Notes: generated by a model not told the origin, from the letters alone. A DNA stretch of 64,000 nucleotides from an uncultured Gemmatimonadaceae bacterium (GCA_963817955.1 CAWFQK010000004.1:960001-1024000), one strand, 5' to 3'. Counted from the first letter of the stretch, positions 31,591-35,069 are shown. A program made the numbers and translations.

Positions 31591-33018
31591 CTACCGCCGC
31601 TGAAACTCCAGATCGCGTACGCGGTTGATCGTCAATGCAAATCCAGTGACTCCGCCGTGTTCGTCGCGTTCGACACGCAACAGCATTTGTTCGCCGTTGG
31701 TGAACAGGTCGTCGGTGAACGCTATGAATCGAATCGGGGCGGCGTTCGGGCGTTGGAACACCAGACCGCCAGCCCGGGCGACGATCGTCACGGGCAGATC
31801 GAGTTCGTCGCTGTAGTATCGTCCGGCGATCGGCTCGAGCAAGTCACTGCTCCGACGCACAACGGTGGAATCGAACGGCGTCGACAACGCGCCGAACGAG
31901 GCCAGACCGCTCGATAGGTCAATCGTCGAAACGCTCGCCGGTTGCGCCGCGAGCCCGAGGACGACGCTCGCGACCTGCTCGGCGAGCTCCGACGGCGCAT
32001 TCGACGTATTGCAGAGCGTGATCACGCTGATGTTGCGGTCCGGAAACCGGACCAGCGAGCTGCGGTACCCGCCGTAGGCGCCGCCGTGTGAATACGTCTT
32101 GAGCCCACGGTAGCGCCCGATCATGATACCGAGCGCATACGGCACGGGCTGCCCGTCATTCAATCGGCCTGGCGTCTCCATGGTCGCGATGCCGGACTTT
32201 CCGCCGACCTTGCCGCTGCTGAAGTTCGCGTCCCATTTGGCGAGGTCGACGACGGTGGAATACGCACCGCCATCGCCGACGACGTCGAACTCCGGCTGAT
32301 TGAGGTGATACGTCCCGCCGGTTGGTTGGTAGCCAAGTGCACGCTGCGGGATCAGCGTCGTATGGTCATCGCGGAACTCCGTGTGCGTCATGCCCAGCGG
32401 CTTGAAAATGCGTTCCGCGGCGAACTCACGGAGCGAAGTTCCCGACGCGCGCTGCACGACGATGGCGAGCAGCGCGTACCCCGTATTGCTATACAGGAAC
32501 TCGTCGCCAGGCACAAAATTGAGCGTCTTCTGGCGCGCGACGAGCGAAAGAAATTGTTGTTCCGTGAGTTGTCCGTCGCTCGGCCAACCCGAAACGCCGA
32601 GCAGCGTGAAATAGTCGCGTAGGCCGCTGGTGTGATTCAGTAACTGGCGCAACGTGATCGTCCGACCGAAGGACGGGACTTCCGGCACCCACTTGCGAAC
32701 GGAATCATCGAGCGACAGCCGTCGGTCCTGCGCCAGAAGCACGATGCTCATCGCCGTGAACTGCTTGGAGAGAGAGGCGATGTAGAAGCGCGTCTCCGGC
32801 GTGATCGCCACGTCGTGCTCGAGATCCGCCACGCCGTAGCCCTTGGCGAACGTTAGTGAGCCGTTTCGCGACACGCCAACGGCACAGCCCGGTGCACGAG
32901 CCACTGCGTAGGGGGCGAGAATCGTATCCACCCAGCGCGAGGCTGTGTCCGGTTGGGCGAGTTGGGCGCCCGCGGGCACAACTGACAGGAAAATGGCGAG
33001 CACAGCACGGCGTAGCAT
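31591..33018 (-). CDS. Serine hydrolase (beta-lactamase class C / S12 family), secreted
   Basis: Motifs SLSK (SxxK), LLNHTSG, YSN and HGG. Confidence 0.9.
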   Translation of the reverse strand: MLRRAVLAIFLSVVPAGAQLAQPDTASRWVDTILAPYAVARAPGCAVGVSRNGSLTFAKGYGVADLEHDVAITPETRFYIASLSKQFTAMSIVLLAQDRRLSLDDSVRKWVPEVPSFGRTITLRQLLNHTSGLRDYFTLLGVSGWPSDGQLTEQQFLSLVARQKTLNFVPGDEFLYSNTGYALLAIVVQRASGTSLREFAAERIFKPLGMTHTEFRDDHTTLIPQRALGYQPTGGTYHLNQPEFDVVGDGGAYSTVVDLAKWDANFSSGKVGGKSGIATMETPGRLNDGQPVPYALGIMIGRYRGLKTYSHGGAYGGYRSSLVRFPDRNISVITLCNTSNAPSELAEQVASVVLGLAAQPASVSTIDLSSGLASFGALSTPFDSTVVRRSSDLLEPIAGRYYSDELDLPVTIVARAGGLVFQRPNAAPIRFIAFTDDLFTNGEQMLLRVERDEHGGVTGFALTINRVRDLEFQRR

Positions 33019-33152
33019 CGAGCCTCCTTTCAAAAACCCTTCCGCCAGAAATCAAACGTGTCCGGTCGTCAAACGGTTCACGCTGGCGCCCGATTTGCAC
33101 GCACCAGCGACGTTGAGGCGGCACCCTTCGGGATCACCCGCTGGAGACCTGC

Positions 33153-33269
33153 ATGGCCGAAATTCGCGTCGAGCCAAAACGCCGAAGCACAGCGTGGCTC
33201 TGGATCCTGCTCGTGCTCATCGTGGCCGCGGCACTTGCCTACTATTTCTTCTATTATCGGAACGGCTGA
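33153..33269 (+). CDS. 38-aa single-TM small membrane protein
   Basis: GGAG RBS then MAEIRVEPKRRSTAWLWILLVLIVAAALAYYFFYYRNG*. Below the ORF-track length cutoff. Confidence 0.75.
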   Translation: MAEIRVEPKRRSTAWLWILLVLIVAAALAYYFFYYRNG

Positions 33270-33310
33270 ACCAACATAAGGTTTCGACCGGCCGAGGGGT
33301 TGAAGCATTC

Positions 33311-33865
33311 ATGGACACCAACGATCGTGAATCGCGCGACGCCGCAGGCGTCGGCCCGTACGTACGCGCACGCGAGAAGCTGGTCCCTCTCAGCACGCTC
33401 GGTTCATGGAAAGTATCGGACGGTGAGCCGGATATCCGCGATTGGGAGGTGCGAACGGTAAGTAACCGCCAGCTCGGCACCGTCAAGGACCTGCTCATTG
33501 ACACGGACGCCGGCGACGTCGTCATGCTCGATGTCGATCTGCCGGAAGGCACGCAACATACCTACGTGCCGATTCGGGTGGTGCACATCGATCGCGAGCG
33601 CCGAGTCATTCTGATGGATTCTGCCGATCTCCCCGCTTCGGAGCTGCCACGCCAGGTATCGATCAATCGCACCGACCCGGCGGATGGTTCTCGCGTCGCA
33701 CGATACCCGAAGACCGATGATGAGGTCATCGTCGACCGGCCAACGATCGCTGATAACGCGCGCAGTTCCGATCACCCGGCGGACGACACGATCGGCGAGC
33801 TACCGCCCTCCGACCGGCGCCGGGCTGAACGGCGGCACATCGATCGGATGAGCACCGATCTGTGA
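33311..33865 (+). CDS. PRC-barrel domain protein
   Basis: WKVSDGEPDIRDWEV...LGTVKDLLID...YVPI. Confidence 0.8.
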   Translation: MDTNDRESRDAAGVGPYVRAREKLVPLSTLGSWKVSDGEPDIRDWEVRTVSNRQLGTVKDLLIDTDAGDVVMLDVDLPEGTQHTYVPIRVVHIDRERRVILMDSADLPASELPRQVSINRTDPADGSRVARYPKTDDEVIVDRPTIADNARSSDHPADDTIGELPPSDRRRAERRHIDRMSTDL

Positions 33866-33931
33866 TTGGCGTTACGTGCCGCCAAGGCGACGCGACAACC
33901 GTGTCGCACGTCACGTGAGTGGCAACGGCCA

Positions 33932-33961
33932 TTGACTGAATCGAGCCCCCGACTCTAGGTT
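33932..33961 (+). promoter_or_regulatory. Sigma70-type promoter for the uORF-tRNA-Asn unit
   Basis: TTGACT (33932-33937)-18 nt-TAGGTT (33956-33961). The predicted start site falls at or next to the A of ATG 33969. Confidence 0.6.
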
Positions 33962-33968
33962 GAATTTC

Positions 33969-34034
33969 ATGACGACACAGGCCAGTAACCGCCATCGCAC
34001 GAATAATCCGGACTCCTCGAGGAGCCCTGGCTAG
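33969..34034 (+). CDS. Putative leader peptide (uORF) MTTQASNRHRTNNPDSSRSPG
   Basis: 21 codons including AAC and tandem AAT-AAT. The stop codon lies inside the 5' strand of a predicted antiterminator. Confidence 0.55.
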   Translation: MTTQASNRHRTNNPDSSRSPG

Positions 34035-34060
34035 CGCGCGCGTTCGTCATCAACACACGC

Positions 34061-34092
34061 GGCCCGCCAGAGCATCGGCGGGCCTTTTTGTT
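34061..34092 (+). terminator. Intrinsic terminator (attenuator) upstream of tRNA-Asn
   Basis: GGCCCGCC-agagcatc-GGCGGGCC-TTTTTGTT. Confidence 0.85.
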
Positions 34093-34118
34093 GCTCGTGA
34101 CGTGGCAGGAACATTCGA

Positions 34119-34191
34119 TGGGGCGTAGGTCAATTGGCAGACCACCTGACTGTTAATCAGGATGTTCCAGGTTCGAATCCTGGCGCCCCAG
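34119..34191 (+). tRNA. tRNA-Asn (GTT), CCA not encoded
   Basis: Acceptor stem TGGGGCG/CGCCCCA with G discriminator, D arm GGTC/GACC, anticodon arm CCTGA-CTGTTAA-TCAGG, T arm CCAGG-TTCGAAT-CCTGG. Confidence 0.95.
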
Positions 34192-34284
34192 TGACGGGAG
34201 AAACAAAGGACCAACGTACACGATGTACAGTGGCCCTTCGTGCATTTCCCTATCATTGTCCGGCGTGCAGAACACACTCGGCCG

Positions 34285-34512
34285 CTATACCGATTTGAGT
34301 TCGCCCTCGAGGTAGCCGAGCACCGCAAACGTGAGCGGGATCAGCGCAAGCACCACGATGGCCGACGCGAGGATCCATCGCTGATGCAAGCGTCCGCCAA
34401 GGCCGGGGAGCACGGTTCCAACGAGCAACGCCACCCCGACGAGGGTGGCGTCAAGAAATAGCCCGAGGATCACGCCCGAAATCGTGCTCCAGAACAGGAT
34501 GGAGAGGCGCAC
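34285..34512 (-). CDS. Small two-TM membrane protein
   Basis: 75 aa with two hydrophobic segments; follows the L,D-transpeptidase gene on the same strand. Confidence 0.65.
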   Translation of the reverse strand: MRLSILFWSTISGVILGLFLDATLVGVALLVGTVLPGLGGRLHQRWILASAIVVLALIPLTFAVLGYLEGELKSV

Positions 34513-34523
34513 GAGCGAACCGG

Positions 34524-35069
34524 TTACGGCTTGATCTGAATCGGCGCGCCGTTCGGGACCATGCGCCAGATTTCCTCAATCTCGGCGTCGGTGACGGCAA
34601 TGCAGCCCTCGGTCCAGTCGAACTCGCGGTGTGCGGCACCAAGGTCAGCGTAAGCAGGCGGCAGACCATGGATCATGATGTCACCGCCCGGCGCGAACCC
34701 CAACGCGTGGGCGCGCCGCTGGTGCGGCACGTCCGGATACGAGATGTGCAGCGACATATGATACTTGCTCGCCGCGTTGCGCGAGTCGATGTGAAACAGG
34801 CCTTCCGGCGTGCGTCCATCACCAATGCGGATCTTGTCGCCCTTTGGCTCTTTGCCAAGTGCCACCTGGAACGTGCGGACGGGCACACCAAGCTGATACA
34901 GCGTGAGCGTGTGTTTCTCTTTCTCAACGACGATGCTGTCGGCAATGATCCTGCCCTTGATTCCCACCACCGGAGTTCGGCGAATGGTCGGCGAGACTCC
35001 TGGCGCGAGCATCTTCGCGGAATCGCCCGAGGCGACGAGCAGCAAGGCGCTGAACAGCGGTAGCAGCAT
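34524..35069 (-). CDS. L,D-transpeptidase (YkuD family)
   Basis: Motifs GDGRTPEG, SLHISYP and IMIHG...WTEGCIA. Confidence 0.9.
   Translation of the reverse strand: MLLPLFSALLLVASGDSAKMLAPGVSPTIRRTPVVGIKGRIIADSIVVEKEKHTLTLYQLGVPVRTFQVALGKEPKGDKIRIGDGRTPEGLFHIDSRNAASKYHMSLHISYPDVPHQRRAHALGFAPGGDIMIHGLPPAYADLGAAHREFDWTEGCIAVTDAEIEEIWRMVPNGAPIQIKP

Follow-up and report, generated by a model that had tools for sequence, protein, structure and literature searches.

Leader-peptide attenuation is a textbook mechanism that, to our knowledge, has been described for genes encoding enzymes and aminoacyl-tRNA synthetases and not for tRNA genes. Its classical enterobacterial representatives are trpL, hisL, pheL, thrL, leuL and ilvL, and in E. 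coli the pheM leader controls pheST. Here, we describe a locus in a window of 64,000 nucleotides (nt) from an uncultured Gemmatimonadaceae bacterium (GCA_963817955.1 CAWFQK010000004.1:960001-1024000; the window is the whole stretch of DNA that was analysed), at which a short upstream open reading frame (uORF) with asparagine (Asn) codons and an intrinsic terminator precede a tRNA-Asn(GTT) gene. From the sequence of this locus and of its relatives, the element is most likely a ribosome-mediated, Asn-sensing leader-peptide transcription attenuator, with the second tRNA-Asn gene of the bacterium as its sole output. This tRNA would then probably be made only when ribosomes decode Asn codons slowly.

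Like the enterobacterial attenuators, the locus has a short leader rich in the sensed amino acid, mutually exclusive pairings between four consecutive regions (1:2, 2:3 and 3:4), an intrinsic terminator and a stop codon situated in region 2. It differs from them in that the regulated product is a tRNA and not an enzyme, in that the leader would have neither a 5′ untranslated region nor a Shine–Dalgarno sequence, and in that Asn would be the amino acid sensed; there is no sequence relationship either. With the T-box riboswitch the locus would share the sensing of the charging of a specific tRNA and the control of the choice between terminator and antiterminator, but T-box recognition works by direct binding of uncharged tRNA, independently of translation, whereas a codon-biased ORF is present here. 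Leader peptides before aminoacyl-tRNA synthetase genes, e.g., those of hisS paralogues in bacilli, are described in the part of PMC2965389 covered here. The pheM and hisS leaders resemble the present one in applying attenuation to the translation apparatus, although they control synthetases, and here it is a tRNA. Leaderless leader peptides, with the transcription start at the AUG of the leader, are described for Deinococcus deserti in the covered part of PMC4007540. The start is predicted to coincide with the AUG in the present case as well, in a different phylum. In the covered parts of PMC2965389 and PMC4007540, all leaders described precede genes for synthetases or for biosynthesis. In a full-text literature search, neither leader-peptide attenuation of a tRNA gene nor an Asn leader, be it for asnB or another gene, was found to have been published; a first-pass annotation of this DNA likewise knew of no such attenuator for a stand-alone tRNA gene.

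When 60 related genomes were searched at the DNA level, 30 loci were obtained, all of which contain tRNA-Asn (the source genome is referred to as G000, relatives' genomes are numbered G and their loci L). The first-pass annotation had named conservation of the uORF and its Asn codons as a check, and both are kept in relatives, with 3-8 Asn per ~21 codons, richer than in the window. In 29 distinct leaders, Asn accounts for 157 of the 619 codons (25.4%), compared to 2.3% in G000 ORFs of at least 300 amino acids, which serve as a proxy for the proteome. Frames +1 and +2 of the same leader DNA hold 1 and 3 Asn codons, respectively (of 619). An in-frame AAY-AAY pair (Y being a pyrimidine) is found just 5′ of the first hairpin in 28 of the 29 aligned leaders, and its distance to the ATG ranges between 27 and 48 nt. 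The spacing of the Asn codons changes in steps of three only, a given position may hold AAT in one leader and AAC in another, and AAT, the rarer codon, makes up 65% of the Asn codons in leaders vs. 35% genome-wide. Outside the Asn positions, the peptide varies freely among leaders. As read from these sequences, the codon pattern is the one expected of a translated codon-sensing leader, and not of a non-coding RNA.

The confinement of Asn codons to the reading frame, their spacing in threes and the interchange of AAT and AAC also argue against an attenuator that responds to general translation capacity or to another factor, and not specifically to the supply of Asn-tRNA. The same holds for leaders of the same build with runs of Tyr, Phe, Met or His that precede matching biosynthetic genes. 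Candidates for another factor would be an RNA-binding protein acting on repeated AAUCG-like words, guanosine tetraphosphate (ppGpp) or Rho. Such a signal would be in keeping with the alternation of Arg and Asn codons in many leaders (NRNRN) and with the recurrence of AATCG-like words, and a leaderless uORF would also report 70S initiation capacity. Rfam finds neither a T-box nor another regulatory family at the locus; for the T-box, there is no match at E values up to 10 in 33000-35000. Altogether, a signal other than Asn-tRNA supply is considered quite unlikely.

Besides the codons, the alternative RNA structures are conserved. Each pairing was scored as the percentage of paired cells on an alignment of leaders (A1) compared with slid controls, and double-change cells were compared with 500 shuffles. 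Hairpin 1:2 is paired in 87.0% of the cells (slid controls 19-48%), the antiterminator 2:3 in 79.3% (23-41%) and the terminator 3:4 in 84.5% (33-59%). They show 3, 8 and 9 double-change cells, numbers reached by 49, 0 and 0 of the 500 shuffles, respectively, and these shuffle counts overstate the support since the A1 sequences are related. The 1:2 / 2:3 / 3:4 attenuator layout and the covarying terminator and antiterminator pairs put forward in the first-pass annotation are thereby supported, as the alternative pairings are kept in relatives, some of them via compensatory changes. The RNAalifold consensus on A1 consists of the terminator only, and the terminator hairpin alone has energies of -16 to -24 kcal/mol across leaders. 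With the footprint of a stalled ribosome masked and before synthesis of region 4, folding predicts the antiterminator for almost every leader (about -21 to -28 kcal/mol). Compared with shuffled versions of region 2, the mean z-score of the antiterminator is -1.4, with 13 of the 28 leaders below -1.64 (four leaders being mis-parsed). In distant lineages with differing terminators, the final stretch of the uORF complements the terminator arm and loop of its own lineage, as illustrated by the pairs CACCGG/CCGGUG, GAGACGGGUC/GACCCGUCGC and GGAGCCGG/CUCGGCUUC. The antiterminator duplex is better than the shuffled mean in 25/26 loci, and by at least 2 standard deviations (SD) in 13/26. To judge from these sequence comparisons, the lineage-specific complementarity in distant lineages is the strongest structural evidence.

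The further organization of the leader is conserved as well. Almost all leaders have a promoter of the form TTGAC, 17-18 nt, TAnnnT, followed by 5-9 nt (mostly 6-7) up to the ATG; the predicted -10 box is called on the basis of this conservation and of the near-constant distance to the ATG. The ORFs of relatives count ~21 codons, e.g., MMTPANNSNRLNNRNSSRRSG or MTNRANNSNNNCGNNRSSSKRSG, and the hairpin CGGAACTCC-nnnn-GGAGATCTG is located directly 3′ of the AAY-AAY pair. In most leaders the uORF stop lies within CTGGCTAG, after which CGCG...GGCCCGCCAGA...GGCGGGCC-TTTTT follows, and the spacer between terminator and tRNA is ~10-50 nt in most relatives. Among the 30 relatives, the D, anticodon and T stems of the tRNA show compensatory changes, which indicates that the tRNA is under selection. 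A strict scripted test, which asks for an ATG ORF of 12-45 amino acids with at least 3 Asn and a hairpin plus T run within 75 nt, is positive for 25/30 of the relatives' loci. In the order, which was sampled with 151 genomes and is apparently Gemmatimonadales, it is positive for 8 of the 12 covariance-model matches that precede tRNA-Asn and for 11 of 56 further loci with the same 'UGGGG' acceptor type of tRNA. As a negative control, 128 ordinary tRNA-Asn loci from Actinobacteria and other phyla, returned by a broad pattern scan, were put to this test, and none is positive.

In the order sample, the leader is carried by 20 of the 69 examined loci of the 'UGGGG' type, in all three families. The 'UGGGG' pattern matched 75/151 genomes, 4 of them solely through a tRNA with a TTT anticodon, leaving 71; the pattern for canonical tRNA-Asn matched 149/151, but it is loose and also matches Lys and Phe tRNAs. 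These tallies include two unpublished genomes (G112 and G124), on neither of which any claim depends. A covariance model built from the leaders (R1) finds the element just once in G000, where the remaining matches have E values of 0.46 or worse; in 151 genomes sampled from the phylum, it gives no convincing match beyond the order. Not every R1 match is a tRNA leader, as several represent different leader-peptide attenuators or mere terminators. Since the model misses divergent NRNRN-type leaders, which were recognised by eye and script, its tallies are lower bounds.

This distribution bears on the possibility that promoter, ORF and terminator, which together make up a complete unit of ~125 nt, are an independent small gene for a peptide or small RNA, the tRNA being transcribed separately or by unregulated leak-through. 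A terminated leader RNA could indeed have a function in trans, of which rnTrpL is a reported example in the covered part of PMC7968998, and the longer spacer in the L021-L027 sub-clade (100-160 nt) might hold another promoter. However, the unit stays with tRNA-Asn across three families while flanking genes change, its enriched amino acid matches the tRNA, and its peptide is free to vary outside the Asn positions. Moreover, a separate tRNA promoter would not fit into the 26-nt spacer of the window or into the spacers of most relatives, and the same design occurs before asnB in a relative. An independent gene thus has only a slim chance of being the right explanation. In the sub-clade of L021, L022 and L024-L027, the spacer of 100-160 nt between terminator and tRNA is itself conserved (GTGTGACGTTGG...TTCGGCAAGTCTGGACGATCG...); it may serve as another promoter, as a signal for processing or as a structural element.

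The tRNA-Asn leader is not the only one of its build in these bacteria. In a scripted scan of G000, three leaderless leaders were found (L248-L250), each with a strong terminator and rich in Tyr, Met or Phe. The Tyr leader (..YRYYYY..) precedes a gene for 3-deoxy-D-arabino-heptulosonate-7-phosphate (DAHP) synthase (NF006421, 497 bits vs. a cut-off of 335). The Met-rich leader (7 Met) and the Phe leader (..FFFSSF..) precede a homoserine-dehydrogenase-like and a prephenate-dehydratase-like ORF, respectively, both scoring below the cut-offs. The Tyr and Phe leaders share the promoter-to-ATG spacing, and the Met leader is without a clear -10 box. Furthermore, in the relative G157 (L166/L244), an Asn leader (MTTATQRFNRNNNR...) with a terminator is located ~160 nt upstream of asnB, which encodes a true asparagine synthase B (NF006949, 732 bits vs. 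a cut-off of 499). The presence of matching leaders before biosynthetic genes makes the tRNA-Asn leader a member of a local attenuator family. No Asn leader is present upstream of asnS or the AsnB-family gene in G000, nor upstream of the asnB genes in genus g9.

Model R1 matched this asnB leader and, in addition, several others that come with a terminator. An Asn leader lies before a NifA-like sigma-54 activator gene (L163, in G094), and a His leader (MFHHVHHHHG...) lies before a hisG-like ORF (L174, in G133), the only basis for its identification being a tblastn identity of 66% with a locus of G000. A leader containing Cys and Asn precedes a gene for a HAD-IB phosphatase in genus g10 (L167, L169 and L170), and a leader is present before an aminotransferase gene (L172/L173).

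The proposed working mechanism is the following, in which transcription start, leader translation, stalling and codon-dependent read-through are steps that we infer. Transcription would start at or within 1-2 nt of the A of the ATG at 33969, resulting in leaderless translation. When Asn-tRNA is plentiful, the ribosome would reach the TAG in region 2 and cover this region, so that region 3 pairs with region 4 and the polymerase stops at 34061-34092, 26 nt before the tRNA. In the absence of translation, hairpin 1:2, together with pairing of the 5′ part of the uORF with the sequence after the stop, would hold region 2, leading to termination as well. When Asn-tRNA is scarce, the ribosome would stall with AAT-AAT in its P and A sites and its footprint would mask region 1 (34008-34016). 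Regions 2 and 3 could then pair ahead of the synthesis of region 4, no terminator would form, and the tRNA-Asn precursor would be made and processed. The basal supply of tRNA-Asn would come from a separate gene with a plain promoter. By computation, the leader ORF, the in-frame codon enrichment, the intrinsic terminator, the antiterminator and the 1:2 hairpin have each been found.

The features of the window locus are listed in Table 1, together with the coordinates of the three other G000 leaders.

Table 1. Coordinates of the tRNA-Asn leader locus (window positions) and of further leaders in the source genome.
Feature	Coordinates	Strand	Basis
-35 box TTGACT	33932..33937	+	Read in sequence; TTGAC kept in nearly all relatives' leaders
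-10 box TAGGTT (predicted)	33956..33961	+	18-nt spacer from -35; TAnnnT in relatives
Putatively leaderless leader ORF, 21 codons, MTTQASNRHRTNNPDSSRSPG, stop TAG 34032-34034	33969..34034	+	ORF translation
Proposed control codons AAT-AAT (Asn12-Asn13), immediately 5′ of region 1	34002..34007	+	
Hairpin 1:2 (anti-antiterminator) CCGGaCTCC / GGAGcCCtGG	34008..34030	+	Free fold
Antiterminator 5′ strand (region 2), holds uORF stop codon	34024..34043	+	Folding
Antiterminator 3′ strand (region 3), overlaps terminator 5′ arm and loop	34055..34073	+	Folding
Intrinsic terminator GGCCCGCC-agagcatc-GGCGGGCC + TTTTTGTT	34061..34092	+	Terminator scan
tRNA-Asn(GTT), 'UGGGG' acceptor type, U1:A72, G73	34119..34191	+	ARAGORN; Rfam 71.4 bits
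Tyr leader	G000:C4:1419100-1419180	-	Scripted scan
Met leader	G000:C4:1199368-1199460	-	Scripted scan
Phe leader	G000:C9:76650-76730	+	Scripted scan

All elements claimed in the first-pass annotation are found, at most 1 nt away from where it had placed them. The promoter TTGACT-18-TAGGTT is present and conserved in relatives, with a gap of 7 nt between the -10 box and the A of the ATG, and the 21-codon uORF contains, in addition to the AAT-AAT at codons 12-13, an AAC at codon 7 (33987-33989). The small hairpin exists too, but its start had been put at 34009, 1 nt off from the 34008 found here (hairpin 34008-34030). It has an energy of -8.3 kcal/mol and begins 1 nt 3′ of AAT-AAT, its 5′ strand lying within the predicted footprint of the stalled ribosome. 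Folding likewise returns the claimed pairing between the region containing the uORF stop and the 5′ arm of the terminator (34024-34043 with 34055-34073), at -21.5 kcal/mol; the antiterminator duplex scores -24.0 vs. -18.7 ± 3.0 for shuffles. The canonical terminator was called correctly and consists of a hairpin with 8 G-C pairs (34061-34084), followed by TTTTTGTT. ARAGORN and Rfam agree on the tRNA-Asn(GTT) that had been reported 26 nt after the T run of the terminator. Among the Rfam rows, the tRNA alone passes its threshold. A Trp_leader row (15.4 bits vs. a gathering threshold of 41, E 9.7) was rejected as being at chance level, as were the sub-threshold suhB and other rows.

A gene for a PRC-barrel protein lies upstream on the same strand, with its stop at 33865, and the terminator is situated ~195 nt beyond it. 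The first-pass annotation had considered that the terminator might simply end the PRC-barrel transcript, in which case the uORF would be a chance ORF. In the 29 other loci, leader and terminator persist and a PRC-barrel gene is upstream in none of them, so the terminator does not belong to that gene; in addition, a conserved promoter separates the PRC-barrel gene from the uORF. This explanation is therefore extremely improbable. The downstream neighbours at 34285-35069, a 75-amino-acid ORF and an L,D-transpeptidase gene, are on the minus strand, which leaves tRNA-Asn as the sole gene that the leader transcript could reach. An inverted repeat, GGACCAACGTAC...GTACAGTGGCCC, is present at 34195-34250, just 3′ of the tRNA, and continues on the minus strand with TTTGTTTCT. 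It probably terminates transcription of the minus-strand genes that converge on the tRNA, whose own transcript may end there as well; the terminator scan of the window does not call it.

Several observations weigh against the attenuator or limit it. Within the window, a strict sigma-70 consensus scan returns 0 sites at the promoter, leaving the -10 box uncalled. No genus-level locus has a leader with fewer Asn than that of the window (3 Asn, a number shared by one relative), and the antiterminator of the window is only ~1-1.8 SD better than shuffles. Taken alone, the window's own signal is modest: 3 Asn in 21 codons have a P of ~0.012 at the genome's 2.3% Asn, and the fold z-score of the leader is -2.16. 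The pattern exceeds chance because it is conserved in relatives. Among these relatives, the leader is dispensable, as L028 and L029 have a plain promoter, and so do most 'UGGGG' tRNA loci in several genera (e.g., g10 and g12). L023 has kept the promoter and a terminator-like hairpin but has no uORF. In L006 the leader is present but its stop codon is changed from TAG to TCG, so that the frame extends into the tRNA. The covariation in the close alignment is confined to few pairs, among related sequences. Folding with the ribosome footprint constrained, proposed in the first-pass annotation, gives a divided outcome: the antiterminator forms as long as region 4 has not been made, but in full-length folds with the footprint masked the terminator is the minimum-energy structure in most leaders, and the antiterminator clearly replaces it in only ~4/28. 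Because equilibrium folds keep the terminator, the switch would have to be co-transcriptional and kinetic, as in the trp paradigm. Finally, a larger amount of tRNA is no self-evident remedy when Asn-tRNA runs short.

G000 has a second, canonical tRNA-Asn(GTT) gene at G000:C2:231499-231572 (L251), 3′ of the end of a uvrA-like gene. It has a plain TTGACT/TACCTT promoter ~10 nt upstream, its own terminator and no leader, and it is the kind of constitutive copy for which the first-pass annotation had suggested a check. Both tRNA-Asn genes of G000 have U1:A72. The regulated tRNA has an acceptor stem (U1, G2-G4, C6, G7) more like that of tRNA-Asp (G000:C2:128564), with which it shares positions 2-4 and 6-7, than like that of the canonical tRNA-Asn; overall, it is 74% identical to the former and 62% to the latter. 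G2:C71 is a minor identity element for aspartyl-tRNA synthetase (AspRS); it is present in the regulated tRNA-Asn and absent from the canonical copy. With regard to enzymes, G000 has asparaginyl-tRNA synthetase (AsnRS, 467 bits), glutaminyl-tRNA synthetase (GlnRS, 686 bits) and GatB (525 bits). AsnA was not found in G000, nor was an E. coli-type AsnB: its only AsnB-family protein scores 311 bits vs. a cut-off of 499 and most resembles an XrtA/PEP-CTERM-type amidotransferase. In the order sample, AsnRS is over the cut-off in 143/151 genomes and AsnB in 4/151. The 'UGGGG' tRNA occurs in 0/4 of the AsnB genomes vs. ~71/147 of those without, but the numbers are too small and the genomes too closely related for this to count as evidence. 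The 'UGGGG' type was not found in the sampled relative whose true asnB carries an Asn leader.

Bdellovibrio, Deinococcus and Thermus, which have the enzyme set-up seen in G000, make Asn on tRNA-Asn by means of a non-discriminating AspRS and GatCAB, according to the covered part of PMC4206432. U1-A72 promotes amidation and is the determinant for the bacterial amidotransferase in the covered part of PMC1635274, which is in line with the role that the first-pass annotation had assigned to this pair. As AsnRS, GlnRS and GatB are found and AsnA and an E. coli-type AsnB are not, the regulated tRNA may serve tRNA-dependent Asn synthesis. Its sequence suggests that the inducible tRNA would feed the AspRS/GatCAB route when Asn is short. 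It is possible, though on the whole rather doubtful, that the element goes further and represents the Asn-biosynthesis attenuator of these bacteria. A dedicated scaffold tRNA-Asn would then take the place of the 'biosynthetic gene', be induced when imported Asn runs out, and be channelled by its acceptor stem to AspRS and GatCAB.

Since the element occurs in soil bacteria of a cultivable type with ordinary genomes, and recognisable attenuators of the same build for Tyr, Phe, Met, His and Asn are found in G000 or its relatives, the proposal can be tested with standard reporters. If it is true, the locus would represent a new type of feedback, in which the level of a tRNA is set by the decoding speed of its own codons, thereby providing isoacceptor-specific control of tRNA supply. 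It would also imply that two copies of one tRNA, one constitutive and the other inducible, divide the work between them. Moreover, it would offer a testable link to tRNA-dependent Asn synthesis, in which the tRNA acts as a biosynthetic cofactor.

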